The position numbers and the translations under genes are program-made. DNA of 64,000 nt from an uncultured Acidobacteriota bacterium (GTDB taxonomy: Bacteria > Acidobacteriota > Terriglobia > UBA7540). The DNA is taken from the NCBI GenBank assembly GCA_963804995.1, contig CAWDSK010000005.1, forward strand, positions 1,216,001-1,280,000. Reading direction: 5' to 3'. How positions within the stretch are numbered: the first letter of the stretch is position 1; the number at the start of each line of letters is the position of its first letter. Below the pieces are notes generated by a model. That model was not told where the DNA came from, made no database searches, and saw only the letters and a program-made list of their open reading frames with translations. Positions 21,331 to 52,283 of this stretch are shown one piece after another.

Positions 21331-21739
21331 TTTTCAATAACTCCCTTTCTTTTCATCAACATAATGGAGAGACGCGTCTAACTCGTTTATTTTCATAAAC
21401 ATCATGGAGAGGCTAAAAGCAGACATTTTTTCTATATGTGTTTTCAATAACATTCCGGCTTCATCCCCCCATTTTCGGGGGGGTTTTTTTTGTGACTCCC
21501 CGCCCCCTCAGAACAATCTAAATATTTTAGTTTCAATGACATAAGTTTTTTCAAAGTTTTCGCTATTCACCGCTAACCACTTTTGTTTCTGATACATAAT
21601 GGAGAGCCACGCCCTTCTTTTTCTTTCCGATCCCCGCATTTCAAGCTAACTATCTTTATTTGAATGAGATAAAGCTTTCAGGCATTTTTACTCAAAACGA
21701 CTAACCCCTTTTGTTTCTGACACATCTTGGAGAGCCACG
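21331..21739. repeat. AT-rich array of about 7 degenerate direct repeats (CTAAC-N-TTT-TTTCA-N-ACAT-NN-TGGAGAG)
   Basis: For example ctaaccacttttgtttctgatacataatggagagccacg (21573) vs ctaaccccttttgtttctgacacatcttggagagccacg (21701); related copies at 21337 and 21378. Confidence 0.7.
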
Positions 21740-28994: not shown

Positions 28995-29034
28995 CAAATT
29001 CCACGAGCGGTCAGCGGGCTGGACCCTGGCACGC

Positions 29035-29075
29035 ATTCAGCCACTAAGTGGCTGAATTCTGGAGTTTGTACATTT
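29035..29075 (-). repeat. 41-bp inverted repeat, left end of the 29.0-39.7 kb cassette
   Basis: Reverse complement AAATGTACAAACTCCAGAATTCAGCCACTTAGTGGCTGAAT matches 39623-39663 at 38/41; contains the palindrome ATTCAGCCACT-N-AGTGGCTGAAT. Confidence 0.85.
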
Positions 29076-29174
29076 CGGATGTGGATTTCGCCGCCTCGGC
29101 CCCCATCACGGCCCACCCCAGAAGCGCGGTTCGGGCGTTTCTCGTCAAAGTGAATTATATCCGTGCGGATCGTC

Positions 29175-30596
29175 TCATCGTGCTCTTAAGAGCGCGCTCG
29201 AATCCGGCCGAGTACCAGTGACTTCAATGCCGTAGGTATCGCCAAGCGCGATTAGTTCCGGAAACTGACATTCGGGGTGGCAGGGTTTGAACTCTGGAGG
29301 TTCCATGTGGCTCCCGACGAAGTGGTAGAGTTGCGCCCCTGGGTTGGACAGATTCAATGGGGCCAGGGTCAGCGCAAGCATTTGAAGCATCTGCATGCTG
29401 GCGCAGGACATCGAAAAAGCAAAAACGTTCTCTCGGACTTTTAAGGGATGGTCGTTAAGCAAGCCTTCAATGTAAGTGGGGTCGTCGAGGAACCCCTCGC
29501 GTTCGGCTTGAACTAGCCCGGGATCGTACTGCCGGTGGCATTGCAAGCAACGGCGTCCGATTGTCGCTGTGTGCGCTTTCCAGTCGGCTGCGACCAGCTT
29601 CCCGAAACGATTGGTTCTGACGCCGATTCCGCCGTCAATGACCGGTATCAGGTGAGCGTAGGCGATGAGGTTCAAGACGTAGCGGCCCCATGGTCGATCC
29701 ACACACGAAAAGATAACATCACTATCGAGCGCAGCGCGAAAGCCATCTTCCTCATAGACGGCGGCTGCAACGGGATCAGGGCGGAAGCGCTTCGTCGTTG
29801 CCCGCGCCGATAGATGCTCGGTCTCAACGTCGACCTTGAGGCGGCCAATGTCCTTTCGGGTGGCATAAACCAGCCGGTCCAGGTTATGCCGTTTGACATG
29901 GTCGAAGTCAATCAAGATTATGTTTTCGAAGCCGGTGCGAGCTAACGCCTCAGCGACCATACCGCCGACACTTCCGGCACCCACGATCGCGATTCGGAGC
30001 CGGACAAGATCAGTGTGTGCCTGCTCACCCCATGCAGATACGGTTCGGACCTGCTCCTCACTGGATTCTGGGGGCCTTGCCAACCTATCCATGTAGGTAA
30101 CCATAAGGCGCTCGCCGACTATACGCACAGTGGCGCAGTGCCGCCGCAGGTAGGTCCGAGGGGCGCTCCGCTCCCAGAACCTGGCGCTCCAGGCGCCATC
30201 GCCGGCCAAGGTTAAACCTACAAGCGGAAGCCGCGTGGCGCCGAAGACCGCAGGGGCGAGACTCTGCTCGGTTGTGATGTCATCGAAGCTCATCCCCTGC
30301 CACTTGATTCCGTTGGGATGGCTGTGCATGAGTGCAAGCCCACCAGCTTCAGACGTGGCCTCAGCTAGTGCCCGCTGAAAGAAGACCGTCTCAAGACTGG
30401 CATTGCCGTGAATGTTGCGATCTCCGTTGCCTGGAAGAATGAGACGTTTGACCAGCGCGGTTTTCCGCTCCCGTCCCCTGCTCGGGCACCATATGGCGAA
30501 GCAGAGGTCTTCCTGACCGTCCCAGCGTAGGAGGTGGTCGCGAGCGACTTGATTGATCGCCGTTGTCATTGCGGAACTGTGTGCGGCACGGCTCAT
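29175..30596 (-). CDS. JAB-peptidase + ThiF/E1 fusion (BubCD-like)
   Basis: N-terminal QE...HSHP...S..D JAB motif; GAGSVG, DFD.VKRHNLDR, SCVD, CLQC and C-terminal CHPEC; ATGA-coupled to the upstream gene. Confidence 0.88.
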   Translation of the reverse strand: MSRAAHSSAMTTAINQVARDHLLRWDGQEDLCFAIWCPSRGRERKTALVKRLILPGNGDRNIHGNASLETVFFQRALAEATSEAGGLALMHSHPNGIKWQGMSFDDITTEQSLAPAVFGATRLPLVGLTLAGDGAWSARFWERSAPRTYLRRHCATVRIVGERLMVTYMDRLARPPESSEEQVRTVSAWGEQAHTDLVRLRIAIVGAGSVGGMVAEALARTGFENIILIDFDHVKRHNLDRLVYATRKDIGRLKVDVETEHLSARATTKRFRPDPVAAAVYEEDGFRAALDSDVIFSCVDRPWGRYVLNLIAYAHLIPVIDGGIGVRTNRFGKLVAADWKAHTATIGRRCLQCHRQYDPGLVQAEREGFLDDPTYIEGLLNDHPLKVRENVFAFSMSCASMQMLQMLALTLAPLNLSNPGAQLYHFVGSHMEPPEFKPCHPECQFPELIALGDTYGIEVTGTRPDSSALLRAR

Positions 30597-31414
30597 TGGG
30601 TTTCCCATAAGGAATAGATGTGGCTCATATAGGCAACCGTCGTCTTCTTGCTGGTTGCCCAGTCTGGGTATGGGCGCGACCAGTACTCCCAATCTCCGCC
30701 CGTACCCTGCTGGAAGGCTCCTGACTGCGATTCGTGGACGCCTCCTAGCGGATGGCCAACGTCGGCGGCGGGGTGAGCAGGATAGATACGTGGGGAGACG
30801 TGGGGACCGGTCGGTGTAGTCATGGGAAAATCGGACGGCACGACGAAGCCTAGTCGCACCGAGCGGCCGCTGAAGCGACCGCTCGGAACGGGGTAATCAA
30901 GAACGACGTGGTTGGGTTTACCCTGCAGAAGCTTCGGGTTATATCCCATTGCGCGTAGCCCGTCCAAAAAGACCTCGACGCCAGTGAGGATCGGACCGTA
31001 AGAAACGGGTTTCGGCCCCGTGGAGACGATCTGAAAGTTCATGCAGTTGTGCATTTTGATTGGCACGCCGCCTTTACCCTGGTAACTCTCGGTATGGCCG
31101 GCAATGATCTGAACGAGATAGTGGTCTGCAGGGTCTTTCTTGCCGAACTCCACAATGATTTGGTTCGGGGTAAGCTCGTGTTTTGTTGTCTCGCAGGGCT
31201 CACCGTCAACTTCGAAATGAATTTCCTGGTGGTGGTGCTCCTCTGCTTCGTGAATCTCTTGCGCTGCCGCCTCAATTTCACGTGCGGCGATTTTTTCAGC
31301 TCCTTGCGCGGCTGTCAGATCTGCTTCCGCCTGCTGTAAGTGCGCCTCTGCCATCTGGAGCTCAGTGCGTGTATCCCGGCCCTCATTCCTGCTAACATCT
31401 TGATTTTCTGGCAT
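30593..31414 (-). CDS. Coiled coil + ubiquitin-like (multiubiquitin) + E2/UBC-like fusion
   Basis: Ala/Glu heptads; IHFEVDGE...LTPNQI...YLVQ...F..VSTGPKPVS beta-grasp; then VPSDFP..P.GPH...WEYWSRP E2-like domain with no Cys; RBS AAGGAG. Confidence 0.78.
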   Translation of the reverse strand: MPENQDVSRNEGRDTRTELQMAEAHLQQAEADLTAAQGAEKIAAREIEAAAQEIHEAEEHHHQEIHFEVDGEPCETTKHELTPNQIIVEFGKKDPADHYLVQIIAGHTESYQGKGGVPIKMHNCMNFQIVSTGPKPVSYGPILTGVEVFLDGLRAMGYNPKLLQGKPNHVVLDYPVPSGRFSGRSVRLGFVVPSDFPMTTPTGPHVSPRIYPAHPAADVGHPLGGVHESQSGAFQQGTGGDWEYWSRPYPDWATSKKTTVAYMSHIYSLWETQ

Positions 31415-31479
31415 GTTATTCTCCTTTTTCGTACCGGTGGTAGACCCGCCTTCAATACTCAATCGGTTTGGCCGGAGTT

Positions 31480-31501
31480 TTTCGGCCACCGGTGGCCGAA
31501 A
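31480..31501. promoter_or_regulatory. Perfect 22-bp palindrome in the divergent promoter region
   Basis: TTTCGGCCACCGGTGGCCGAAA. Confidence 0.7.
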
Positions 31502-31556: not shown

Positions 31557-32159
31557 ATGGCGGCAGGCACTTCACCTCGGAACCCGGAGACGATCGATTG
31601 GCGGCTGCTGATGAAGCGACTGCATGGAGCTGCCGTTCGCCTCGTCGGCAGCAGCAACCGTTTGATCGATTGCGGGGGATCCTCCGCGAAGGACCTCGTT
31701 TCCGAGGTGCTTGAAGAGTTCTTTAACTCTCCGAATGGATGCGGCTGGGATGGCACCGAGGCTGGGTTGACCCGATTGCTGTGCAAAATGATTGAATACA
31801 GGTTTATCGACCACGTACGCCGTGACGGCAAGGTCGCGATCGACTCCGAAACCCCACTTGCGACCGCGATATGTCATGATTTAGGGCCCGACGAGCAAGC
31901 AGCCAGCGATCAACTGCGCAGTAGAATGTTCGATGCTGTGAAAGGTCACCCGAAGGAAGCCGAGTTACGGGACTTCATCCAAGCCGCGGCGATGATTAGC
32001 GATGGAAGTATGGTTGATAAACAGATGGCAGAGTTGCTCGAAATTAGGGTGGGCGAAGTGCGTAATCGTAGAAAGATGCTCCGGCGAATCGCCAGTATTC
32101 AACAGCTCGGAATTATTATGTTAGGCGGACCACATGAAGACAAAGAAGGGCAAGCATGA
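31557..32159 (+). CDS. ECF-like RNA polymerase sigma-70 factor
   Basis: Region 2-like SAKDLVSEV...WD...L..LLCKM..YRFIDHVRR; region 4-like MAELLEIRVGEVRNRRKMLRR. Confidence 0.7.
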   Translation: MAAGTSPRNPETIDWRLLMKRLHGAAVRLVGSSNRLIDCGGSSAKDLVSEVLEEFFNSPNGCGWDGTEAGLTRLLCKMIEYRFIDHVRRDGKVAIDSETPLATAICHDLGPDEQAASDQLRSRMFDAVKGHPKEAELRDFIQAAAMISDGSMVDKQMAELLEIRVGEVRNRRKMLRRIASIQQLGIIMLGGPHEDKEGQA

Positions 32160-32574
32160 GGCACTCGACCGCCAGTTGAAAGCGCTGTTCGGCGATCCGT
32201 TGTCGGTCGATACCTCGGAACTCGACAATATCAGCGAGGAAACCGGCGACGGTTCCGATCTCGTTCAGATCGCGTACGACCTTGCCGCTCGCGCGGCCCA
32301 ACAATCTCGCTTGGAAGGTAAACCCGTGCCGCCGCATGTTCAGACGGCTCTGGCTCAGATTAAGGAAGCCAACACGTTGGAAGGCGCGACTTCAGCCGAG
32401 CTTGCTGAGATCGTGGACTGGGTTCTGAAGCCGTTTCGCGGCCCGACTGAGAAGCTCGCGTTCAATCATCATCGGTTGACTGATAAGTCGGAGAAGGATG
32501 AGCGGCTGTTGCAGCAGTTGGGTGAGGAGGTGAAACAGGACTGGACAAAGGAGGATGAAAGTGAACGCGGTTGA
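32134..32574 (+). CDS. Small soluble protein, candidate anti-sigma / IrrE substrate
   Basis: 146-aa helical ORF overlapping both the sigma and peptidase genes; function inferred from position only. Confidence 0.6.
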   Translation: MKTKKGKHEALDRQLKALFGDPLSVDTSELDNISEETGDGSDLVQIAYDLAARAAQQSRLEGKPVPPHVQTALAQIKEANTLEGATSAELAEIVDWVLKPFRGPTEKLAFNHHRLTDKSEKDERLLQQLGEEVKQDWTKEDESERG

Positions 32575-33415
32575 AGAGCTCGCAGAGTTACTCGCAGAAC
32601 GGTTGGCACCAAACGGAGTACCCGATTTACCTTTCATCGCAGGTCAAATCGGCCTTCGGATTAGGGAAGTTGAAGCGGATGGCTTCGATGGTACGCTGGT
32701 GCGAGCGCAGGACGCTGCGAAAGGAATCATCGCGGTCAACTCCGCGATCCGTGAGTACACTCGCAAGCGATTTACCATCGGGCACGAAATCGGTCACTAT
32801 CTGATTCCGCATCACCGGGGGCTGCAGAACGTCTGCCGGTCCGACGACATCGAGCGATGGCATTCCGCCATTGCTACAACTGAGCGAGAAGCTAACCAGT
32901 TCTCGGCAGAGTTGCTCCTCCCTCGTAGGGTGGTCAGTCCTCGCCTCGGCTTAGATAATCCGTCGCTTCGGAGGATTAGCGAAGTTGCTCGCGAATTTTC
33001 AACCAGCCTATCTGCCACGATTTATCGGTATCTGGACCTTACTGAGCTGGCGTGCTGCATGGTTTGGAGCGAAAGCGGTCGAGCGAAGTGGTACGTACAT
33101 AGTGACAGCTTTTCGCTTCCCTTGCCCATCCAAGAACTGCCTTCGGCGGGATCTTGGGCCGCGAAACTATTTGCGGACCAACCAGTGCCCAATGATCTGG
33201 TAGAGGTTCCTTCCGACGCTTGGTTAAATCGGTGGGACACGAGCAGAGTCAGCCGGGTTCTCGAGCACTCCATTCCTCTTCCGTCGTACGGTGCCGTTAT
33301 ATCATTTCTGGAATTGGAGTTAGAGGCTTCGGAAAACCGCGAAGAAGAGGATGAAGCGCTCTTGCAGGAGTTGGACCCAAACAGATTCGACAGTCGCTCG
33401 CGGCGCAATCGCTGA
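32561..33415 (+). CDS. ImmA/IrrE (CapP-like) zinc metallopeptidase
   Basis: GFDGTL, RKRFTIGHEIGH (HExxH), EREANQFSAELLLP, F.TSLSA and a C-terminal GAF-like region. RBS AAGGAGG favours GTG 32561. Confidence 0.92.
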   Translation: MNAVEELAELLAERLAPNGVPDLPFIAGQIGLRIREVEADGFDGTLVRAQDAAKGIIAVNSAIREYTRKRFTIGHEIGHYLIPHHRGLQNVCRSDDIERWHSAIATTEREANQFSAELLLPRRVVSPRLGLDNPSLRRISEVAREFSTSLSATIYRYLDLTELACCMVWSESGRAKWYVHSDSFSLPLPIQELPSAGSWAAKLFADQPVPNDLVEVPSDAWLNRWDTSRVSRVLEHSIPLPSYGAVISFLELELEASENREEEDEALLQELDPNRFDSRSRRNR

Positions 33416-33560
33416 TATTGCGGTACTTGGAACGGCTTGTCGACGGGGTGGCTGGCGCAGATCGAGCGCAGATCTGCGCCAGCCACCCCGACTCGTTCGA
33501 CTTGCACCAAATCGCACGGCTTCGCTCGCCATGCGCCAGCCTGCCATTGCCCAGCCACAG

Positions 33561-34649
33561 TTATACTCTACAAATGCTGGAATGCGTGAAGGCCCCGTGC
33601 AAAACACTCGCTACCGCAGCAGCTTTTGCCCATGCACTCTGATTTCTATCAAGCCTGAGGTCACAATATGATTGGGGTGGCCTCAAATCCGCTTGAAGTC
33701 CCAGCAGATACGAAATCTGTGAAATGGAAACAGGCTCTTTGTAAGGGAAAACGTTATCCAGTTCGATTGCGTTAACTTCTGCAGACTGACCTACGTAGGC
33801 CGAAAACTCGTCGCGAGTACATCCTAGACCTGCATGGAATCTCGTCCATATGGCCTCTGGAGTACCCTTGGTGATTGAGCACACGGTGGCTTCACCAACG
33901 AGCGCCTTTTGAGGGGTGGAGGAGTACAGCACCACCTTACAGCCAATCCATTTTTCCGAAAACTTCTTTCGGATTTCAACCATTTTGGAGCCGGAAAGGA
34001 TACGCTCCGCATACTGAGGTTTCATACTAACCAATAAGTCGCCTCCGAGAGAGTACCCACTCACATTGAATTTCCTCGCCAGCGCCGGCAGACGTTCTAA
34101 AGCGGCAAGGCGCACAAGCTTATGAGGCGCCGAACATATCAACTCGTCTTCCCCAGTGCGATATTGTCTCTCCGACTTGGCTGGCTGCATGAATCCGAAA
34201 GATTGGAAAAAGCTCGCTCTTGTCTCCCACAGGCTTTCTGGAAGAGTGAAGTGAATCTCCTTCGCGATATGCCTTGTCTCCAGAGTCATTTGGGTGAAGA
34301 AGAGCTGTCCGAGGTCCATATCTTGAAAATCGCGCTTGATTCGTAGATGGCAAAACTTTGCCTCTTTGCCTATCTTCAGAATCGCAGTCGCGATCGGCTC
34401 TTCGCCTTCGTATGCCACCCAGGCGGCTCGCTCAGAGGTTATTAGACCCGGAACAACCTTCTCTCGCAGCCACCGGTGAATGCCCGGATACATATCTTCG
34501 CTGGCGCCGACAAGGTTCATGAGTGTTTTTAGCTGGTCCGAATTAAGCCGAGCATCCGCCTTTCCCAGCTTCACGATCCTGAAATTTGCCGCCAGTGGAA
34601 ATAACGAATCGGATCGCTCATTTAATCGCTGCTTCAATATTGCCATCAT
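33561..34649 (-). CDS. GNAT acetyltransferase + ASCH (PUA-like) domain fusion
   Basis: YPGI.RWL..KV, IATAILK, KFCHLRI...FQDMDLG (GNAT); SMKPQYAERILSGSKMVEIRK...LYSSTP (ASCH GxKxxExR). Confidence 0.8.
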   Translation of the reverse strand: MMAILKQRLNERSDSLFPLAANFRIVKLGKADARLNSDQLKTLMNLVGASEDMYPGIHRWLREKVVPGLITSERAAWVAYEGEEPIATAILKIGKEAKFCHLRIKRDFQDMDLGQLFFTQMTLETRHIAKEIHFTLPESLWETRASFFQSFGFMQPAKSERQYRTGEDELICSAPHKLVRLAALERLPALARKFNVSGYSLGGDLLVSMKPQYAERILSGSKMVEIRKKFSEKWIGCKVVLYSSTPQKALVGEATVCSITKGTPEAIWTRFHAGLGCTRDEFSAYVGQSAEVNAIELDNVFPYKEPVSISQISYLLGLQADLRPPQSYCDLRLDRNQSAWAKAAAVASVLHGAFTHSSICRV

Positions 34650-34662
34650 TACCTCTCAGACG

Positions 34663-35841
34663 TTAAGTCCAATTTGCAAAGAAGTTCGAAAGCTTGAGAT
34701 CCTGGCTTCCGTAACCCTTTGCTTCTTCCTTTTGCTCTTCTTCGTTCAGTGTTGGTGCATCCTCTGACATCCGATAAAATATGAGATTAGCCATTTTCTC
34801 GCCGTTTGCAAGGCTAACCGGAACCTGATGGCCACGCACCTCAAATATCAGAGGAGTTCCCTTCTTTCCGTCCTCTCGGTAAAGACCGAAGTGGGGATGC
34901 ACGAAACCCGCATAGTGAATCCGCATCTCTCCCATTGTTTCATCGCTGGCGCGGCAATAGATCGCGATGCCTTTCGGCACGTGTAGCTTCTCCCTTGATC
35001 TCAATATGTAGAAAATGTCAGGCTCAATAACCAAGCGACTGTTTTTATCTACATGCTCAATGTCCCAATACGCGCTGGGGTCGGTCTTCTCATCCTGCTT
35101 CCAGAGTGGAACCGGACCGCGTATATCATTTGGAGCATCTACTCGCCTCGAACGAAATGCAACTCCCCGAATCGCGACTCCTTCAGAATCACCTATCGTA
35201 GCATTAGCCAGATTTACGGTCAGGCTTTCATTTCTGTGGCCGGTATCACGAAAAATAGTGTTAAACAATTCCGTTCCTCGAACGATTAGGTCATCGGGTT
35301 TGCCGTAGAAAAACCGAAGCTGACTAAGCGAGGTATTTGTCTTGACCCTTACATCAAACGTTATCGGGGTGATTTCGAGAAACATGTCCCCGGAGCCTTT
35401 TGATACGCGTGTGTCAAAGCATTCGTACGTCTCCATCCCGTCCACTATAAGGCGGGCAAGAACGTCCACGCGCCCGACTGAACTCTTGGCAGTCGCTTGT
35501 CCGTAAATCACCTGTGAGTTGCGCAACCCAGCTTCCAGTCTCTCCTGAAGCCTGAATACATATGTCTTTTGCCGTTTTAGGTCATAAATACCATCAGTGG
35601 GTTTGCGCATTTTCTGTGCAAGCTTATATTTCTCCGTAATGAACCAGCCGTATGGGCTCTGTGACGGTTTCACAGACCCTTCTAACATCTCGTACGCATC
35701 ATCGGCTAGCGAAAGGTCCATAGAGGAGTGGCCAATCTTGGGCCTCGATCCGGCGTGAGTGATGAACCCCTCGTCCACTAGTTTTCCCATTTGGGGTTTA
35801 TTTAATGCTCCCGGTGCCCATTCGTCCCACGGATATCCCAT
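34663..35841 (-). CDS. dcd: 2'-deoxycytidine 5'-triphosphate deaminase (two-domain DCD, dUTPase fold)
   Basis: SSMDLSL, AKSSVGRVDVLARL, LSQLRF, GEMRIHYAGFVHPHFG, FEVRGH, YGSQDLKLS; RBS AAGGAGG. Confidence 0.85.
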   Translation of the reverse strand: MGYPWDEWAPGALNKPQMGKLVDEGFITHAGSRPKIGHSSMDLSLADDAYEMLEGSVKPSQSPYGWFITEKYKLAQKMRKPTDGIYDLKRQKTYVFRLQERLEAGLRNSQVIYGQATAKSSVGRVDVLARLIVDGMETYECFDTRVSKGSGDMFLEITPITFDVRVKTNTSLSQLRFFYGKPDDLIVRGTELFNTIFRDTGHRNESLTVNLANATIGDSEGVAIRGVAFRSRRVDAPNDIRGPVPLWKQDEKTDPSAYWDIEHVDKNSRLVIEPDIFYILRSREKLHVPKGIAIYCRASDETMGEMRIHYAGFVHPHFGLYREDGKKGTPLIFEVRGHQVPVSLANGEKMANLIFYRMSEDAPTLNEEEQKEEAKGYGSQDLKLSNFFANWT

Positions 35842-36334
35842 TGAATTACGATCCCTCCTTGCAGGACTGTAAATCGCTCGGCTCCATAATGGGGCCGACA
35901 CCGAATTGAGACAAGCATCTTTTCGGCACGCATCGCCTAGACACTCCGCCTGACATAAAAATAAGAATATCTGATTCAGAGGGAAAATGGCGAATACAAA
36001 GCGAAACTAAGAATTCAAACTAAAAGTGCCATGTGTACCCAGGAGCTTGTCCCGGACGAGCTTGGGACGACGATTCTGCGTTGCGTCCAATGCTATCAGC
36101 CCAGCCTCGCGGTGTACGGTTTACCGATTCCCCGTCACTTGGTTGTATAGTCGCCAAACCGCTCCTCTGTTGTAGGCACCCGCTTAGAAACGTAGAAATC
36201 TGAACGCAGGCCGAGGATTGAGAGCGAGTCATCCTCATCGCCGCAGGCGGCTTTGGCTTTAAATATCATCGCCGCAGGCGCGTTCGGAGACGGCGGGATT
36301 TGGTAGGATGAGTTCCTGGAGATGTAAGAAGGAG

Positions 36335-36365
36335 AACCCCGGTTGTTTGCCCAACCGGGGTTTTT
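36335..36365 (+). terminator. Intrinsic terminator inside the IS21 left end
   Basis: AACCCCGGTTG-TTTGCC-CAACCGGGGTTTTT. Confidence 0.65.
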
Positions 36366-36460
36366 CATTGGTGGCCCCGGTCAAAGGACCTCCAAGTTCG
36401 TCAGCGAGAGTCATCCTGCCATGATCGTCGCCGGTTGTCCAGTGCCCTCTCTCGAAACCG

Positions 36461-36913
36461 GTGCCGGTTGCTTGTTCCGCTGTTTTTCGCCAGCGCGTGT
36501 GTCACTTTCCTCCCTGTGGCGCGGTGTTTTATCTCTGCCAGCGCTGTGACCGCGGCCAGCGTTATTGCCGTCCCCATTGCCGGGAAAAGTCCCGCCGTCT
36601 CCAGCGCCGCGAGGCTAACCGCCGCTATCAACAAAGTCTCGGCCTGGAGGGGCGCCTCGATCATCGCCAGCGCCAACGCGAGTATCGCCAGCGCTTAAGA
36701 GCTCGCGTGACAGATCAATCTTCCCTTCGTGCTTCCCCCTGTGTGAACCTGACAGCGCCTCCGGCTCCGGAGCCGGCCGAAGCCCCTCCGGCGGCAGTTT
36801 TTTCCCCGGGGTCGGACGCCGAGCACGCGGCGAGCTGGGTCATCTGTCAGATTTGCGGACGCCGGGGGCGTTGGATCAATCCTTTTCCCGAGGTGAAGTA
36901 TGATTGCCGATGA
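36461..36913 (+). CDS. Cys-rich Zn-finger accessory protein of IS21
   Basis: C-x4-C...[14 protein letters not shown], Arg-rich helix, C-terminal CQICG; overlaps the istA start. Confidence 0.65.
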
Positions 36914-38402
36914 ACAAGTCGCTCAAATCCGTCACCTGTTTCACGCCGAGCATTGGAAGATCGGCACGATTGCGGCGGAACTGCACCTGCATCCCGATAC
37001 CGTGCGCGCCGCGCTCGAAACCGATCGCTTCCGTAGCCATCCCCGGCTGCGCGATCGTCTCACCGATCCTTACCTCGACTTCCTGCGCCAGACCTTGCAG
37101 CAATATCCTCGCCTGCGCGCTACCCGCCTCCTGCAGATGATCCGCTCGCGCGGCTACCCCGGCAGCATCAACCAACTCCGCCGTGTTGTGGCCGAACTAC
37201 GCCCGCCCCAGGGTGAAGCTTTTCTTCGTCTGCGCACGTTCCCCGGCGAGCAAGCACAGGCCGATTGGGCCCACTTCGGGGAAGTGACCATCGGTCGCGC
37301 CCGCCGTCGTTTGTCCGGCTTCGTCCTCACCCTCTCCTACAGCCGCGCTTTGTGGCTGGAGTTCTTCCTCGACCAAACCCTGGAGAATTTTCTCCTCGGT
37401 CACGTCCATGCCTTCGCCGATTGGGGTGGGGCCGCCCGAACCGTTTTGACCGACAATCTGCGCAGCGTGGTCTTGGAACGCAGTGGAGAGGCCATCCATT
37501 TCCACCCCCGTTTTCTCGAACTTTCGGCCCACTACCATTTCGCCACTCGGCCCTGCCGTCCTGCCCGGGGCAATGAAAAAGGCCGCGTGGAGCGCGCCAT
37601 TCAATATGTCCGTCACAACTTTTTCGCCGCCCGTCCCTTCACCACCCTGGCCGATTTCAACCGTCAGGCTCTCGACTGGCGCAACCAGGTCGCTCATCAG
37701 CGCCCCTGGCCCGGTGACGACTTCCGCACTGTCGCTCAGGTTTTCGAGGAAGAGAAACCGCGCCTGCTGCCACTTCCTGCCCATCCTTTCTCCTGCGACT
37801 TGACCACCACCGTGCGCGCCGATAAAACCCTCTGGGTCCGCTTCGACCTCAACGACTATTCCGTGCCGCCCCAGGCCTTGGGCCGCACGCTGACCTTGGT
37901 GGCTTCCCCTACCCGCGTGCGCCTCCTCGATGGCGCCACTGAAATCGCTTCCCACCCCCGCTCCTATGACCGGCATGAACTCGTCGACGAACCCGCACAC
38001 CATCAGGCCTTGCGGGAACAAAAACGCAAGGCTTTGGGTTCCACCGCGGGAGGTCGGCTGGCCATCCTGGTCCCGGAAAGCCCGGCCTTTCTTCAAGCCG
38101 CCTTTGAGCGCGGTGAATCCACCGCTCGGCTGACCGTGCAACTTCTCCGCCTGCTCGATGACTATGGGCCTGCGGAACTGAGCGCCACCCTCCGGGAAGC
38201 TCTCGACCGTCACACCCCGCGCCTTTCCTCCGTGGCCTTTATCCTGGCGCGCCGCCATCGCCAACGCCGGCAACGCGCTCCCTTGCCCGTCAATCTCTCC
38301 CGCCGCCCCGATCTGGAAAACTTGACCGTCTCAAATCCTTCTCTGGAGGCTTACGATGAACTCACCCAGGACCCCGACGAAGAACCCGAGCCCGAATCAT
38401 GA
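36900..38402 (+). CDS. istA: IS21 transposase
   Basis: [30 protein letters not shown]. Confidence 0.95.
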
Positions 38403-39174
38403 TCTGGCCGCGCAACTGAGCCATATCGGCCTGCTCGTCACCGCCCAAGGTCTGGATGATCTCCTGGCCCGCGCCTCGACTCAGCCCTGGAGTCCCCGCC
38501 AGTTATTGGAAGAAATCGCCCGCTCCGAAACCGAAGACCGGGCTCGCCGCAGCCTTGAACGCCGTCTCGCCCAAGCCCGCCTCGGCCGCTTCAAACCTCT
38601 GGCCGATTTCGATTGGCACTGGCCCAAGAAGATTGACCGCCCCTTAATCGAACGTGCCCTCACCTTGGACTTCCTCGCCTCCGGCCGCAATCTCATCCTC
38701 TGCGGCACGAACGGGCTGGGCAAAACCTTAATTGCCAAAAACATCGCCCATGCCGCCGTGCTCGCCGGCCACTCGGTCCTGTTCCGCACCGCCGCCGATC
38801 TGCTCGCCGATCTCGATGGCGATTCCCCCGGCTTACGTCGCCGTAAGTTCCGCTTCTACGCCCGCCCCACTCTGCTGGTAATTGACGAATGTGGATATCT
38901 GGCTTACGACGCCCACGCCGCCGACCTGCTCTTCGAAGTGATTAACCACCGCTATGAGCGCAATTCTATTCTGCTGACTACCAACAAGGCTTTCAAAGAC
39001 TGGAACACCGTTTTCCCCAACGCCACCTGCATCGCCGCGCTGCTGGATCGCCTCACTCATCATGCCGACGTAACCTTGATTGAAGGCACTTCCTACCGCG
39101 TCCGGGAAAGCGAACTGGAAGCCGCCGCGCACAAGAAAAACTCCGAAAGGAGCCCCCGTGCCCACCGCTCTTGA
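38356..39174 (+). CDS. istB: IS21 helper AAA+ ATPase
   Basis: [29 protein letters not shown]...GTSYR. Confidence 0.95.
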
Positions 39175-39505
39175 AACCTATCGCCAAACGTTAATCGATC
39201 TCTATCTCCGCCTGCCCGATACCCCGCGCCGTCTGAGCCGCTTCGACCTGCGTCTGGTCCGCCAACTTTGGCAGCGCCAGATTCCCCTGACGACCGTGGA
39301 AACAGCCTTCTTGTTAGCCTCATCGCGCCGCGCGGCTCGTCGCCCCGACGCCGTGCCCCTCGGACCTATTCGCTCCCTACATTACTTCCTGCCCGTCATC
39401 GAAGAACTGCTCGCCCAGGCGGTCCCTGAGTCTTATCTTGCCTACCTGCGCAGCAAAGTCCCCGTCCACCCCGCAACCGGCAAAACCGCCGCCACCACGG
39501 ACTGA
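39158..39505 (+). CDS. Hypothetical IS21 accessory protein
   Basis: Y..LPDTP.R....[15 protein letters not shown]; lies inside the IS ends, overlapping istB. Confidence 0.6.
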
Positions 39506-39622
39506 CGTTAAACCCCACGCCGCAAAACCGGCCTCTGTTCAAATTTCTACGTTTTTAAATGGGCGCCGACATCTGTCACCCTGCGGGAATCGGGGGCCTG
39601 GCGCGGGGGGAGTTCGCATACA

Positions 39623-39663
39623 AAATGTAGAAACTCCAGCATTCAGCCACTGAGTGGCTGAAT
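39623..39663 (+). repeat. 41-bp inverted repeat, right end of the cassette
   Basis: AAATGTAGAAACTCCAGCATTCAGCCACTGAGTGGCTGAAT; partner of 29035-29075. Confidence 0.85.
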
Positions 39664-39850
39664 TGAGGTGTGGAAGGGCGTTTGCCGTTCCCGGTCCCTC
39701 CGGGACGTGGACATGCCGGCCGGCTGGCGCAGAGCAACGCTCTGCGGTTTGATTTCTCCGTAAGCGTACGGTCAGGGCCGTCTCGACGAATCTAGAATAG
39801 GTGGGCATTCTCCAGATGGACACACTGATGGTGTCCACTTGGAGAAACAG

Positions 39851-43279: not shown

Positions 43280-44884
43280 TTGCCAGGTAACCACAACGAA
43301 ATTGAGAAGCGTCTTTGGAGTGCGGCCGACGAGCTGCGCGCCAATTCCAAGTTGAAATCTTCTGAGTACTCCGTCCCGGTTCTGGGGCTAATCTTTCTTC
43401 GCTACGCCGACCACAAGTTCACTCAAGCTGAAAAAGAGCTGGCAAACAAGGGTTCGCAGCGGCGCTTTGTGAACAAGACGGATTATCAAGCGCGGGGCGT
43501 GATGTACCTTCCGCCCACGGCGCGTTTTTCCCATCTCTTGAAATTGCCTGAGGGTGCGGATACCGGCAAAGCCATCAACGAGGCGATGAAGGCTATCGAG
43601 GCCGACAACGAAGACCTGAAGGACGTGCTTCCCAAGACTTACAACCGCCTGGAAAACTCCACGCTGGTCGAGCTGCTGAAGACCATGAGTTCGATTCCCA
43701 TGGATATTGAGGGCGACGCCTTTGGGAAGATTTACGAATACTTCCTGGGAAAATTTGCGTTGAGTGAAGGCCAAAAGGGCGGCGAATTTTTTACCCCAAC
43801 ATCGCTGGTGAAGCTCATCGTCGAGGTCATTGAGCCTTACCACGGGCGCATTTTTGATCCCGCCTGCGGCTCGGGCGGCATGTTTGTGCAGAGCGCGCGG
43901 TTTGTAGAGAACCACAAGAAGAACCCCGGCGCGGAAATCATGGCCTACGGGCAGGAGCGCGTTGCCGAAACCATTCGGCTCTGCAAGATGAACCTGGCGG
44001 TGCACGGCCTCTCCGGAGACATTCGCCAGGCCAACACATACTATGAGGACATCCACCAAAGCGTGGGCAAGTTTGACTTCGTGATGGCCAATCCGCCCTT
44101 CAACGTGGACAAGGTGGATAAGGAAAAGATCAAGGACGATCCCCGCTTTCCCCTCGGCATGCCCAAGGCGGATAACGCCAATTATCTTTGGATTGAAATC
44201 TTTTTCAGCGCCTTGAGCGCCAAGGGGCGGGCGGGTTTCGTGATGGCGAATTCCGCCGCCGACGCGCGGGGCACGGAATTGGAGATTCGCAGGAAGCTGA
44301 TCGAATCGGGCGTGGTGGATGTGATGATTTCCATCGGCTCCAATTTCTTTTACACCGTCACGCTGCCCTGTACGTTGTGGTTTTTGGATCGGGGTAAAGC
44401 TGCGCCAGCCCCGGGCGCGAAGAACAAAGAGGGCAGGGCGACCTGTCCCGGCCCAGCCGGGAGCCCAGCCCCTACGAAAGATACGGTGCTGTTTATCGAC
44501 GCCCGGCAGACATTTACGCAGATTGATCGTGCCCACCGCGAATTTACGGAAGAGCAAATCCAGTTCCTCGCCAACATTGTGAGGCTGTACCGCGAGGAGC
44601 CGCTGGCGGCGTTTATTGATGCGGAGACCAAAAAGCATTTCCCCAAGGGCAAGTACAAGGATGTGTCCGGCCTGTGCAAGGAGGCGACAGTTAAGGAAAT
44701 TGAGGCGCAGGGTTGGAGCCTGAATCCCGGTCGATACGTGGGCGTGACCGAGCGCGCGGCGGATGATTTTGATTTCAAGGAACGATTGGAAGAATTGAAC
44801 GAGGAACTCGAAACCTTGAACGCCGAAGCGCGCGAACTGGAAGAACGCATCGCCGAAAACGTGGCGCAACTATTGGATGAGTAG
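43280..44884 (+). CDS. hsdM: Type I R-M methyltransferase subunit
   Basis: [33 protein letters not shown] start with RBS GAGGTG. Confidence 0.95.
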
Positions 44885-44891
44885 GCCCTCC

Positions 44892-45043
44892 TTGGAGTGC
44901 GGTAGCAGCAGCTACCGCCTTTCGTTGTTACGCGGCGCGATCTTGCCGTATGAATCGAAGGTGGAAGCCCTCGCTATTTCGGGCGCATACTTCGCGGTTC
45001 TTAGCGCGTTCGGAAGGCGGTAGCTGCTGCTACCGCACTCCAA
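44892..45043. repeat. REPIN-like element, 30-bp perfect inverted arms
   Basis: TTGGAGTGCGGTAGCAGCAGCTACCGCCTT (44892-44921) and its reverse complement (45014-45043). Confidence 0.9.
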
Positions 45044-45080
45044 AGGGGGGCGAGCCGTCCCGCCTAATAGACACGTTGAA

Positions 45081-46307
45081 ATGACAAGTCACGCCAGACC
45101 AGAATGGACCGCCAAGCGGCTCGACGAGCTGGGATTCGTTGGGAGAGGGAAGTCGCGCCATCGCCCCCGGAATGACGAGCGTCTTTACGGCGGCCCTTAT
45201 CCATTCGTGCAGACGGCTGACATCATGGCAGCGGACCCTTACATTTCCAGTTACTCTCAGACCTACAGCGAGTTCGGACTCCAACAAAGCAAGATATGAC
45301 CGGCAGAGACTCTTTGCATGACGATCGCAGGTGCGAATACAGCAAGGACTGCGATTCTTAAAATCGAAGCGTGCTTCCCGGACAGCGTGGTGGGGTTCAT
45401 TCCTGATCCGCTCAAAGCCGACCTTTGTTTTGTCAAATACTCACTCGACTTGATGAGGAACCGATTTCTCGCTGTGAGCCGCGGCGCAACGCAAGACAAT
45501 CTTAGCTTGGATAAGCTTCTTTCGTTCCCAATCATAACGCCAGGCATAGATGCGCAACGCCGCATAGGGGCCATCCTTTCCGACTACGACGACCTGATTG
45601 AAAACAACACCCGGCGGATCAAGATTCTGGAAGAGATGGCGCAGGCGCTCTACCGCGAGTGGTTCGTCCACTTCCGCTTTCCGGGGCATGAGAAGGTTAA
45701 GATGGTGGCGTCGGCCCTTGGGCCGATTCCGCAGGGGTGGGAACTCAAGCGGTTGGGAGACGTTGCGCAAATTGTGATGGGCCAGTCGCCCAAATCTGAG
45801 TTTTACAACGAACGAGGCGAGGGCCTACCATTCCACCAAGGCGTGACCAACTTTGGCGCTCATTTCCCGACGCACCGAGTTTATTGTACTGCTGAGAACC
45901 GGCTCGCCGAGGCGGGCGATGTATTGCTAAGTGTTCGGGCACCCGTGGGCCGAATTAATGTGGCTAACGGTCGGATGGTGATTGGACGTGGCCTCGCCGC
46001 TGTCCGTGGCCGTCATGGCCATCCATGTTACTTGCTTTATCAGCTCAAACATTGTTTCAGGGAAGAGGACACGATGGGGGGAGGGACGATTTTTAAGGCC
46101 GTAACGAAGGATGATGTTCACAGCATCGAATTAATACGACCTGAGAGAGATCTCGTTGGTGGGTTCGAAGGACACTGCGCACCGCTCATGCGGCAACTCG
46201 CGACCCTCACCAACAAAAACAGCAACCTCCGCCGCACCCGCGACCTGCTGTTACCCAAGCTGATCTCGGGCGAAATTGATGTGTCGAATCTCGACATCCG
46301 GACGTAG
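45081..46307 (+). pseudogene. hsdS: Type I R-M specificity subunit with in-frame TGA at 45297-45299
   Basis: Two TRDs plus conserved regions (QRRIGAILS.YDDLIENN.RRI.ILEEMAQ.LYREWFV; RDLLLPKLISGE). ORFs 45081 and 45318 share a frame, separated by one stop. Confidence 0.88.
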
Positions 46308-46378
46308 GGGTAGGGCTTGCCTTACCCCTGGCGGGCCACTGGCCCGCTGAACTGTAGCGCGGGTGTCCCCACCCGCGC

Positions 46379-48141
46379 CTGGCCTTTGGCCTTTTGCAGT
46401 TCAAGCATTGGCGTAGCAGAGGGCGGAGGCGAGGGGGAAGGTACAATTCTGGGGCTTCGTTGTAGAGGGTTGGGGAGGCGCGAAGCCGGAGAAATGATCG
46501 AGACCCAGTCCCCGGCCCCAGACCTCGGCGCGCAGTTGATGGATGGCGTGTTGGGTGGAGATGCGGGCAGTGGGGGCAGCGTGGATCCACTTGGGGCGCG
46601 GCAGCAGGCCGTGGCGGGTACGGGCGAAGGCGCGATGGGTAGCGAGGAGCAAGAGGGCATAGGCGGCCACGGTGAAGGCGGGGGCAGACTCGACCGAATG
46701 GGGGGAGCGGACCTGGGCTTGGCCCACTCCCAGCAGAGTTTTTTCATCGCGGAAATTAACTTCAATGTCCCAGCGTTGGAAGTAAGTTGTGATGAGGAGT
46801 TGGGGGTTGAGGTTTTCGTCGGTGCAGAGGAGGAAGGCGGGTTGGCGATAGAGCAGCTTGGAACCTTGGCGCAGACGATAGGCGAGCGGCGCGATGACGA
46901 CAAGTTGCAGGAATTGGTGGGCGCCGGCGGCACGCCACAGGAGGCCGGTGCGGCGCTTGAAGCGGAGTTGATGGGGAATGCCGTGATGGGTAAAGGTCAA
47001 GGTCTGCCAGGGAGCATCGTCGGTGCGGACCTGCTCGGGAGTGGGAGCGGGAGGCCCGTAGCAGAGACGGCGACCGCGCGCCTTTTGGGTTTGGGGATCG
47101 GGCCGGAACAGCAACTGAGCATCTTTGCGGAGCCGGCCGATGGCGGTGGTATGGGGAGGAAGGCGTTTGAGGACGGTGCGGTTGGTGTATCCGCCATCGA
47201 AGGCGACGAGGAGAAGGCGCGAAGCGGAGGCGGGATCGGAGTCAAGGGCCGCACGCAGATCGTGGATCTGTTCGCTGGCGCGTTGACCGAGGCGGGCAGC
47301 GCGCGCTTGGGTGCGGTACTGCTGCTGCTCGGCGGCGGGGGCCTGCCGGGAAGGCTTGCGGGGCGTGGGGGCATGGCGGAAAGCAATGGGGAGCAAGCGG
47401 CAGGAGCCGTCGGGAGTGGGGAGCGCGAGGGAGGTTTGAAGAAAACGCTGGGCGCGCACGAAGTTGGTTTGAAAGCGCGGGCCCAGCGGGTCGCGGCGCC
47501 AAGCCACCCCGGGAGTGCGCCGACCGGAACGACGCAACAGCGAGTCATCGAGGAGGGCGCAGACGGGAGCGCCGGGTGCGAGTTCGCTCACCACCGCGCG
47601 GCGCACCACGGAGAAGAGCGCCTCAACCCGCAGACGGTGCTGGGAGAAGAGCCGGTAACTGGAGGTCCAGTCACGGAACTGCAGGCCGCAAGTGGTGAGC
47701 AGACCGGTCACGGTATGGCGTCCCAGACAAAGCAAGGTGCTCAGCGCGAGGGCTTGGGCGTGCGCGGCAACGCGGCGCTGGCGGAAGCCCGGGAAACATT
47801 GGCTCCAGAGTTGTTCGAGTTCGGCGAGGACGCCGGTAGAGTTTTTTTTAGCACGGAAGGCGGCGGCGAGGCTCGTCGCAGGGCCAGCAGACCTTTGTTT
47901 TCGACGAACCATTCGACCGATTCGCCGCGCGCAAACTCCATGGCTTGGGCGAGGGCGGAAGGAAAGTTGATGTACCACTGCTCGCTCGCCTGGCGTTTGA
48001 TAAGCTGTACTTTGGTAGGGAACCCCATGAGAAAAGCCTCCTTGAGGAATATCTAGTCATATAACTAGATATCAGAAGACTGGCTTTTCTGCAAGTAAAT
48101 ACTTTCCGACAGCCTTTATCTAGTTAAAGGCCAAAGTCCAG
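46379..48141 (-). mobile_element. IS4-superfamily (IS701/IS4-like) element, copy 1, 1763 bp, 22-bp target duplication
   Basis: IRs CTGGCCTTTGGCCTTT / CTGGACTTTGGCCTTT; flanked by GCGCGGGTGTCCCCACCCGCGC at 46357-46378 and 48142-48163. Confidence 0.92.
46401..48028 (-). CDS. AbrB-like domain + DDE transposase, fused by predicted -1 frameshift at the A8 run (47842-47849)
   Basis: orfA KVQLI...QWYINFPSALAQAMEFARGESVEW; orfB LDDS, FDGGY, YFQRWDIEVNFRDEK (Y-2-R-3-E-6-K). Confidence 0.82.
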
Positions 48142-48176
48142 GCGCGGGTGTCCCCACCCGCGCACGAATTCAACAA

Positions 48177-48200
48177 CGCGGGTGGGGACACCCGCGCTAC
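48177..48200 (-). repeat. GTAG-type REP, inverted partner of the REP targeted by IS copy 1
   Basis: CGCGGGTGGGGACACCCGCGCTAC; further copies near 42926 (degenerate), 54337 and 54363. Confidence 0.85.
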
Positions 48201-48258
48201 AGCGGGCGGGACGCCCGCGTTACGACGATGGCGATGGCCCAGAGAGGGATAACGAAAA

Positions 48259-48507
48259 ATGAACGTACGTCTACATCCCCACGCGCAGGAACGAATCGCC
48301 GAGCGGGGCGCCACGGAAGAGGAAGTTGTGGCCACGGTGCTTGAAGGGGAGACCTTTCCCGCTAAATTCGGACGGACAGGTTTCCGCCGCAATTTTGCTT
48401 TTGACGGCGAGTGGCTGGGCCGCCGGTACGCCACCAAGCAGGTGGAAGCCTATGCCGTTGAAGAAGATGGCTGGCTTGTGATCACGGTTATTGTAAAATA
48501 CTTCTGA
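48259..48507 (+). CDS. DUF4258-like putative RelE-fold toxin
   Basis: HPHAQERIAERG.TEEEV...VITV; upstream of a DUF2283 gene. Confidence 0.7.
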   Translation: MNVRLHPHAQERIAERGATEEEVVATVLEGETFPAKFGRTGFRRNFAFDGEWLGRRYATKQVEAYAVEEDGWLVITVIVKYF

Positions 48508-48525
48508 AGGATGGTGAGTTCCGCC

Positions 48526-48786
48526 ATGAAATTAACCTACGACCCTCGCTATAACATCGCGTATCTCCGTTTTCAGGAAAAGACCGCTCAGGTGGAAACG
48601 CTGCATCTCAGCGACGCCCTGAATGTCGATATGGCCCCGGATGGGACCGTCTATGGGATTGAAATGCTGAACGCGGATCAGCAACTCCGGGCGGAGGACA
48701 ACGGAGACTTCGTCATCGTGAACGAGGCGCTGGCGCAAAGGCAGGTCGTCCGCCTTGCCAAATCGGAGGGGAAAGGTACGCCTTGA
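48526..48786 (+). CDS. DUF2283 putative antitoxin
   Basis: MKLTYDP..NIAYLRF...VD...DG..YGIE.LNA. Confidence 0.8.
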   Translation: MKLTYDPRYNIAYLRFQEKTAQVETLHLSDALNVDMAPDGTVYGIEMLNADQQLRAEDNGDFVIVNEALAQRQVVRLAKSEGKGTP

Positions 48787-48989
48787 GGAAGCGACGTAAG
48801 CCGGCGAAGCGCTTCGACTGTATCGAATTCAAGCGCCAGGCACAGGCGGAGATTTACCAGGAAATCAAAGGGCTCACGCCCGAAGAGGAAATCGAATATT
48901 TCCGCCGGCAGGTCGCTGCCGGTCCTTTCGGCAAGTTGTGGAAGTCCCTCGAAGATCGCTCGCGGGCCGCGGCTTGGCACCCTTCATGA
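48783..48989 (+). CDS. Small hypothetical protein
   Basis: FDCIEFKRQAQ.EIY.EIKGLT.EEEIEYF; coupled to the upstream stop. Confidence 0.55.
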   Translation: MRKRRKPAKRFDCIEFKRQAQAEIYQEIKGLTPEEEIEYFRRQVAAGPFGKLWKSLEDRSRAAAWHPS

Positions 48990-49003
48990 GATTTCGCGCA
49001 GCG

Positions 49004-49123
49004 TTTGGACTGCGGCCGCGAAGCTGCCGCTTTCCAATTTGGCGCCGAAGTTGACCCCAGCCACAACCGCTATGTTATGGCTGACGATGAGGCAAAGCGG
49101 CAGCTTCGCGGCCGCAGTCCAAA
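49004..49123. repeat. REPIN-like element, 30-bp perfect inverted arms
   Basis: TTTGGACTGCGGCCGCGAAGCTGCCGCTTT (49004-49033) and its reverse complement (49094-49123). Confidence 0.9.
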
Positions 49124-49144
49124 GCGGCTGCGCCGCACACGCCA

Positions 49145-52100: not shown

Positions 52101-52283
52101 TTAGACTGGCGAAAACGGCAGCAATCCAGGGCGGCGGTTCGCGTTTGCATTGGAGAGGTCCTCGACCACCTGCCTCGGGTGTACACGCCTGAGGTTTACC
52201 AACAAAAATGTGAGCTGACCTACCAACACGTTTACGATTCGTACTTTGGGTTAGGTAGTAGCGTATACGAGAACCGGGTATAG
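49145..52283 (+). CDS. hsdR: Type I R-M restriction subunit; +1 frameshift near 51790
   Basis: RADLVGFVNGLPLVFVELK, WHTQGSGKS, TDEAHRSQ, FTGTP, MWMTGFD; C-terminal domain continues in the +1 frame (KLIKFNRTR...YQHVYDSY). Confidence 0.92.

Follow-up and report, generated by a model that had tools for sequence, protein, structure and literature searches.

The DNA analyzed here (the window) is a 64,000-nt stretch of an uncultured Acidobacteriota bacterium (assembly GCA_963804995.1, contig CAWDSK010000005.1, positions 1,216,001 to 1,280,000 of the forward strand). It carries a two-gene operon encoding a dCTP deaminase of the dUTPase fold (DCD) and a protein in which a GNAT-fold domain is fused to an ASCH domain (GNAT-ASCH). 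The analysis of related loci revealed that DCD and GNAT-ASCH form a mobile, tightly linked, low-GC two-gene module. Comparison of the protein sequences leads us to a tentative reading, which we hold at somewhat short of an even chance: the module would be an antiphage system in which DCD depletes dCTP and is gated by GNAT-ASCH acting as a pseudo-GNAT/ASCH sensor and antitoxin.

Both reading frames were confirmed on the minus strand with a gap of 13 bp between them, as described in a first-pass annotation of the window. That annotation had also noted that the operon is richer in AT than its flanks and lies inside a repeat-bounded cassette. The GC content of the operon is indeed 0.496, whereas its 5-kb flanks have 0.570 and 0.608; the genome mean is 0.585 +/- 0.022, and only 2 of 3308 windows of operon size are equally GC-poor. 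The cassette is delimited by 58-nt inverted arms found on both sides (29035-29092 and 39606-39663). Coordinates are collected in Table 1.

Linkage, spread and decay of the gene pair

Scanning of metagenomes with an alignment of DCD sequences gave at least 594 pattern matches, among which at least 401 relatives were confirmed; the best 80 were kept. GNAT-ASCH lies directly downstream of DCD on the same strand in 76 of these 80 loci, and the remaining four end 1-28 bp after the DCD match. Conservation of the pairing, on which the first-pass annotation had made its proposal depend, is thus evident. Altogether 86 loci were examined, corresponding to 67 groups at 95% DCD identity. No conserved third gene was found among these groups, the commonest neighbour being present in five of the 67. 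This neighbour immediately follows GNAT-ASCH on its strand and encodes a protein of about 200 aa that lacks annotation and has no convincing Pfam or PADLOC match (L015, L016, L060:12313-13035, L078 and L080:6581-7180). In another locus (L051:12364-12960) the pair is followed by an AAA_18 kinase-like gene, which recalls the AAA_17 accessory of GNAT-EVE operons.

Nine loci were found through GNAT-ASCH. All seven that are cellular or proviral have DCD upstream, truncated by an insertion in one case and cut by the contig end in another. The two without DCD are phage fragments. One contains a full GNAT-ASCH gene amid T4-like portal and capsid genes (L095:9965-11023; record 20% complete), and the other only the GNAT part, 74% identical to that of the window (L094:5393-6082; record 9% complete). 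It is possible that these phage copies serve as antidotes.

Full-length GNAT-ASCH was detected in one of 401 genomes of the phylum, namely the window's own, and in four of 29 genomes of the genus, with a frameshift in one. The insertion sites differ among the genus genomes, for example after fabF or before a type III restriction-modification (RM) system. For all 28 loci whose flanks span 2 kb or more, the GC content of the pair is below that of its surroundings.

The two genes overlap in 39 of 42 non-redundant pairs (starts were called naively, at the first start codon), and in the window 14 codons that copy the usual DCD tail can still be read after the TAA stop. For these reasons the 13-bp gap looks derived. 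In four of 87 loci inspected for decay, a broken DCD stands beside an intact partner, and in two more the partner of a broken DCD runs into the contig end. The partner is broken and DCD intact in one locus, and both genes are broken in one. As breaks hit DCD six times and the partner once, the evidence leans towards DCD being the costly gene of the pair.

The deaminase

The DCD protein matches Pfam DCD_N and DCD_C above cut-off, its N half (residues 11-180) corresponding to DCD_N. The housekeeping two-domain DCD of Agrobacterium (PDB 2r9q) was matched in sequence (E 3e-28) and in fold, the predicted model (pLDDT 85.8) aligning with it in Foldseek at E 1.6e-26 and TM 0.74/0.85. Profiles, model and Foldseek agree on two fused dUTPase-fold domains, so that the initial assignment to this fold and not to the Zn-dependent CDA fold holds.

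The protein scored 178.6 bits with the NCBIfam equivalog for two-domain DCD (PRK07559), below the cut-off of 283 bits. A separate single-domain housekeeping dcd is present on another contig of the genome (161 bits, over the TIGR02274 cut-off). In a tree built by a quick method, 42 paired DCDs were split from 11 canonical DCDs, which include the S. meliloti and Paracoccus copies, with an SH-aLRT support of 100. Judging by this tree, the paired DCDs are an accessory branch apart from vertically inherited housekeeping copies, and the possibility raised at first pass that the window's gene is the housekeeping one is not borne out.

Residues K119-S120-S121/R124, H309 and E334 are present in the window's DCD. 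Four of them (S120, R124, H309 and E334) are kept in 42/42 paired and 11/11 canonical DCDs, the mapping having been checked against single-domain Dcds. This Ser, Arg, His and Glu have roles in deamination in E. coli Dcd. The KSSxGR motif lies in the N domain and His309 and Glu334 in the C domain, all of them kept in 42/42 paired DCDs, which suggests a composite active site. The Asp of motif 3, found in 11/11 canonical DCDs, is replaced by His in 42/42 paired ones (His315 in the window), and C296, D300 and E301 are new invariant residues fixed in the paired branch. In dUTPases the motif-3 Asp is catalytic for dUTP hydrolysis (PMC4827122). Since the deaminase residues are kept throughout, deamination is likely to be intact, with altered chemistry at the sugar site.

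No DCD match was found in the phage collection, and plasmid matches were housekeeping-type DCDs only. A search for DCD fusion proteins covered the range of 763-2175 aa and found none, which is weak evidence. None of the PADLOC models matched DCD.

The ASCH half of the partner protein

The predicted model of GNAT-ASCH (pLDDT 79.5, pTM 0.59) has one GNAT and one ASCH domain. Their Pfam scores are slightly below the cut-offs and both domains are clear by fold: the GNAT half aligns with RimI (Z 14.9, rmsd 5.4, 150 aligned) and the ASCH half with ZmASCH (Z 18.7, rmsd 2.7, 141 aligned). A search of the ESM Atlas with the partner gave generic GNAT clusters only, and a fold search among viral proteins gave nothing more specific than generic GNAT and ASCH proteins. 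Conservation was assessed on an alignment of 165 partner sequences (120 database clusters, 42 loci and three distant sequences), distant GNAT-ASCH relatives being under-sampled in the collection.

The ASCH half matches the PADLOC candidate defence family PDC-M11B (7e-27) and, at 99.4%, a lambdoid phage gene annotated 'GevA antitoxin', which adjoins a gene annotated 'GevT toxin' (GenBank PV340567). A PADLOC scan of the reference proteins identified GevT as PDC-M11A and GevA as PDC-M11B. The two annotated genes (L098:1944-3372) are located directly after cI in the lambdoid phage, and relatives of GevT were seen in 58 viral loci.

Within the ASCH octapeptide, K222, E225 and R227 are kept in 163, 164 and 163 of the 165 sequences, respectively. 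The octapeptide is thus of the Glu type, as in ZmASCH, and not of the Thr/Ser type GK[T/S]R of YqfB, which has Thr at the Glu position and did not appear in a PDB sequence search with the partner. By these sequence features the ASCH half is to be placed with the GevA/PDC-M11B/ZmASCH kind. In Glu-type ASCH proteins the Lys/Glu pair is a catalytic dyad that removes N4-acetylcytidine (ac4C) from tRNA, and some of them hydrolyse N4-acetylcytidine; ZmASCH does not hydrolyse the free ac4C nucleoside and is active on tRNA in vitro (2026 preprint 10.64898/2026.02.27.708502). According to the same source, 19 of 19 tested ASCH proteins remove tRNA ac4C in vitro, so that a role of the ASCH half as an eraser or reader of N4-acetylcytidine is possible. 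The analogy with YqfB drawn at first pass has to be modified, as the subfamily is a different one.

The same residues would also fit a two-step relay against N4-modified cytosine, operating with no antitoxin control. In this defence, aimed at phages with modified bases, a modified nucleotide or nucleic acid made by the phage would lose its N4-acyl group to ASCH, and DCD in its altered form would deaminate the resulting product or the modified dCTP itself. Such a relay would account for the retention of Lys222 and Glu225, for the invariant change in motif 3 with its accompanying C296, D300 and E301, and for a locus (L205) in which DCD lacks an intact partner. It would leave the highly conserved GNAT half unexplained; moreover, the nearest relative with a solved structure, ZmASCH, does not act on the free nucleoside (10.64898/2026.02.27.708502) and no modified substrate is known here. 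We regard the relay as improbable, roughly a one-in-five matter.

The GNAT half of the partner protein

The canonical coenzyme A (CoA) pyrophosphate loop has the motif [QR]xxGx[GA]. In the window it reads FQDMDLG, and QDxDLG is usual among the paired proteins. The description of this loop as degenerate at first pass applies to the whole family: a canonical loop was found in 0/165 sequences, acidic residues replace Gly, and Asp112 is present in 145/165. Residues K98, C100, H101 and G114 are kept in 165/165. Mean identity is 60% for the GNAT half, 58% for DCD and 53% for the ASCH half.

The GNAT half matches small free-standing GNATs at 95.7-96.7%, two of the four being from jumbo phages, and all four aligned keep the loop Gly (QxxGxG). 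Such small GNATs accompany GNAT-EVE/ASCH operons on plasmids (L128 and L189) and occur in 23 phage records, those listed being jumbo phages of 223-469 kb such as 201phi2-1 and RSL2. Two jumbo-phage genes with a canonical loop (L187:2435-2884 and L188:2561-2941) belong to the family that forms the GNAT accessory of GNAT-EVE/ASCH operons. The resemblance to GevT is weak, 20% against a 14-sequence profile (E 0.001), and the match to PDC-M11A is only 1.5e-3. The option that GNAT-ASCH is a plain GevT homologue was dropped, the match to one sequence being 2.6%.

Because the CoA loop is acidic and never canonical, an acetyl writer, one of the activities first proposed for this domain, appears unlikely and the GNAT half is likely to be a pseudo-acetyltransferase. 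The alternative offered alongside it, a sensor, fits better. On the whole the first-pass interpretation is supported in part; that all three activities converge on cytosine N4 is conceivable.

We also considered the reverse assignment, with the GNAT as an active toxin that works by a Cys-His mechanism or with an unusual acyl donor, ASCH as its eraser in cis and DCD as a nucleotide sensor or antitoxin. GNAT domains are typically toxins, and GNAT-EVE/ASCH operons are predicted toxin-antitoxin systems (PMC7641849). The invariant K98, C100, H101 and G114, the loss of the motif-3 Asp from DCD and the two phage fragments with GNAT or GNAT-ASCH in the absence of DCD agree with this assignment, though the completeness of these two phage records is just 9% and 20%. 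The six loci with a broken DCD and a partner unbroken as far as seen should not exist if the GNAT were toxic. The reverse assignment is further disfavoured by the acidic replacement of the pyrophosphate-loop Gly and by the four deamination residues (Ser, Arg, His and Glu), which are retained in 42/42 paired DCDs. In our estimate it is unlikely, and a shade more so than the relay.

Defence genes near the module

Within 7 kb of the module, 267 open reading frames (ORFs) of 140 aa or more were scanned, and a chosen subset of 125 was compared with PADLOC together with four reference proteins. Neighbour labels were assigned by hand, with Pfam hits at E 1e-12 or better. Of the 29 non-redundant loci whose flanks reach 6 kb or more, 26 entered the count, which omits the window and both phage loci that have no DCD; 12 hand-spaced 14-kb windows of the window's own genome served as control.

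Defence genes were found near 10/26 loci and in 0/12 control windows (one-sided Fisher about 0.01, calculated by hand). Established systems are a type ISP RM system (L018), HNH with CD-NTase (L045), Z1-type RM systems (L051 and L067) and HerA-SIR2 (L080). Candidates are DUF5131 (L003, L070 and L075), CapP (L007) and an E1/E2 pair like that of the window, which adjoins the module in L058. Genes of mobile elements were seen near 9/26 loci and in 4/12 controls, and genes of either class near 14/26. The association with defence, for which the first-pass annotation had named enrichment in defence islands as a check, is moderate and falls short of proof.

Proposed mechanism

Depletion of dCTP is a proven defence strategy (10.1101/2021.04.26.441389). 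We propose that GNAT-ASCH keeps DCD off until infection is sensed, whereupon DCD would turn dCTP into dUTP and starve phage DNA synthesis, possibly with uracil loading. DCD would be active on dCTP and, without the motif-3 Asp, would not carry on to dUTP hydrolysis. The GNAT half would no longer acetylate and would act as a binding module or decoy, and the ASCH half would read or remove N4-acyl marks carried by cytosines of nucleic acids. The partner may have come from a GNAT-EVE/ASCH (PDC-M11, GevTA) operon by fusion of the small GNAT to the ASCH gene, DCD now occupying the former upstream toxin slot. The trigger, the weakest step of the scheme, could be phage-borne acetylation or a phage GNAT.

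One elaboration, which we think unlikely, is a guard against phage acetylation. A dead copy of a jumbo-phage GNAT, fused to an N4-acetylcytosine reader or eraser, would detect the phage enzyme or its mark and switch on a re-tooled deaminase that drains dCTP or modified dCTP; phages with GNAT or GNAT-ASCH alone would use it as an antidote.

A number of observations weigh against gated dCTP depletion. With established systems only, the comparison becomes 5/26 against 0/12 (one-sided Fisher about 0.13, by hand), and in 12/26 loci the neighbourhood lacks defence and mobile genes alike. The enrichment is only moderate because the control is a single genome and the labels were assigned by hand. Pairwise distances of DCD and GNAT correlate at only 0.34. 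The 6:1 split in decay is small and the frameshifts may be assembly errors; unless it is such an error, L205, where an intact DCD stands beside a frameshifted partner, is forbidden by strict antitoxin control. The Asp-to-His swap could weaken or redirect the DCD enzyme. The antitoxin role of GevA is a GenBank annotation for which no supporting paper was found. The GNAT half may still be an enzyme, since conservation within the pair is highest there and the loop of the annotated toxin GevT is non-canonical too; the invariance of K98, C100 and H101 likewise speaks against a dead GNAT.

The 12 loci amid housekeeping genes only, the freely varying insertion sites and the absence of a PADLOC model match for DCD could point away from phage defence, to a selfish addiction module or a horizontally moving accessory unit for clean-up of nucleotide pools or damage. 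Set against this are the dcd that the genome already owns and the match of the ASCH half to a PADLOC candidate defence family, while low GC in 28/28 loci and defence neighbours in 10/26 fit defence cargo. We judge a non-defence role to be about as improbable as the relay.

Should gated dCTP depletion be correct, dCTP-depletion immunity would have recruited a second enzyme fold unrelated to the first, and the pair would offer a two-protein test case for how such deaminases get switched on. It would also give a function to the ASCH proteins of GNAT-EVE operons, which are widespread, and a clue to the role of the matching jumbo-phage GNATs. The module is compact and easily cloned.

Genomic context of the window

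Table 1. Features of the DCD and GNAT-ASCH module and of the surrounding cassette (window coordinates)
Feature	Coordinates	Strand	Description	Basis
DCD gene	34663..35841	-	ATG start, 392 aa; predicted effector	ORF call, profiles, fold and tree
GNAT-ASCH fusion gene	33561..34649	-	362 aa; predicted sensor/antitoxin	ORF call and domain evidence
AAGGAGG	35854..35860	-	Shine-Dalgarno-like, 12 nt 5' of the DCD ATG	Read from sequence
Vestigial DCD tail	34618..34662	-	14 codons behind TAA; in most relatives translated, overlapping the next gene	Sequence comparison
GNAT-fold domain	34119..34586	-	Residues ~22-177; acidic CoA loop QDMDLG, invariant K98/C100/H101; likely pseudo-acetyltransferase	
ASCH domain	33585..34043	-	Residues ~203-355; GevA/PDC-M11B/ZmASCH kind; octapeptide G220-x-K222-x-x-E225-x-R227	
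Left cassette end	29033..29092		Cargo cassette around the pair, bounded by repeats: its left end; context, outside the module	
Right cassette end	39572..39671		Right end of the cassette; IS21 element (36170-39571) inserted just inside; context	

Promoter or terminator signals of the operon were not found above shuffled sequence. A palindromic REP-like element with many copies genome-wide lies between the CapP gene and GNAT-ASCH (33444-33550).

Since the other neighbours of the pair are unconserved, the repeat-bounded cassette is incidental to the module. Its end sequences (29059-29163 and 39572-39719) bracket five stretches of 5-10 kb in the genome, the other four being C6:1672248-1682131, C6:1026896-1031991, C3:826489-835457 and C1:444888-451209. 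The cargo between the shared ends is unrelated (a helicase, Zeta and PIN toxin genes, DUF6088 and unknown proteins), and the cassette was rejected as a functional unit. These stretches appear to form a family of cassettes that carry cargo and encode no transposase themselves.

The window is a defence island that contains AlbA_2-ATPase, AIPR, an AEP-TOTE fragment, AbiEii/AbiEi, an E1 and E2-like pair, a CapP-like peptidase, IS21, IS66, tRNA-Gly and a type I RM system. The E1 protein (ThiF, with an unannotated N-terminal part) and the E2-like protein are encoded divergently from a sigma70-like gene, a gene for a 146-aa protein and the CapP/IrrE peptidase gene (29175-31489, minus strand; 31557-33415, plus strand). 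This arrangement resembles bacterial ubiquitination-like operons with CapP regulators. The type I RM system (43280-52283) is broken by an insertion sequence copy at about 46376-48144, and its hsdR consists of two ORFs. A reverse transcriptase gene (RVT_1) is located at 57986-59422, and positions 21345-21739 hold short repeat units that recur on several contigs.

Comparison with known systems

No published account of the DCD and GNAT-ASCH pair was found, although Iyer et al. 2013 (PMC3763556) or the supplements of PMC7641849 could list it; passages of PMC12839542 do not mention the pair. Searches for GevT, GevA or PDC-M11 gave nothing relevant among the matches listed, and no paper was found on GNAT-EVE with ASCH in phage defence since 2021, or on ASCH with GNAT in connection with antitoxin, prophage or acetylation since 2023.

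AvcID is among the closest known antiphage systems, with dCTP deamination as the strategy that the module is predicted to share. Deamination of dCTP during infection is also the predicted strategy shared with the antiphage dCTP deaminase of E. coli AW1.7, which is likewise an accessory gene atop housekeeping metabolism (10.1101/2021.04.26.441389). Deaminases of that type are fusions of a kinase and a zinc-dependent deaminase, whereas here a two-domain dUTPase-fold DCD is accompanied by a separate GNAT-ASCH partner; both the N-terminal kinase and the C-terminal Zn cytosine deaminase domain are absent from DCD. With the housekeeping two-domain DCD (PRK07559/2r9q) it shares fold, domain order and the KSSxGR, HYAG and E-x-R motifs. 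It differs in sequence (identity about 29%), in its separate branch, in the Asp-to-His replacement and in being tied to GNAT-ASCH and not to metabolic genes.

For the partner, ZmASCH (PDB 5guq/5gus) shares the ASCH fold and the Glu-type octapeptide, here fused to a GNAT, while YqfB shares the fold and differs by the Thr at the Glu position. The GevTA/PDC-M11 operons have in common with the module the ASCH subfamily (99.4%), an upstream gene overlapping the downstream gene that bears ASCH, and a small GNAT that matches the GNAT half of the window (L128 and L189). In contrast to these operons, there is no (PIN)-GNAT-EVE toxin here and DCD takes the upstream slot; and instead of standing alone or being fused to HTH, the ASCH domain of the window and its relatives is fused behind a small GNAT with an acidic CoA loop.

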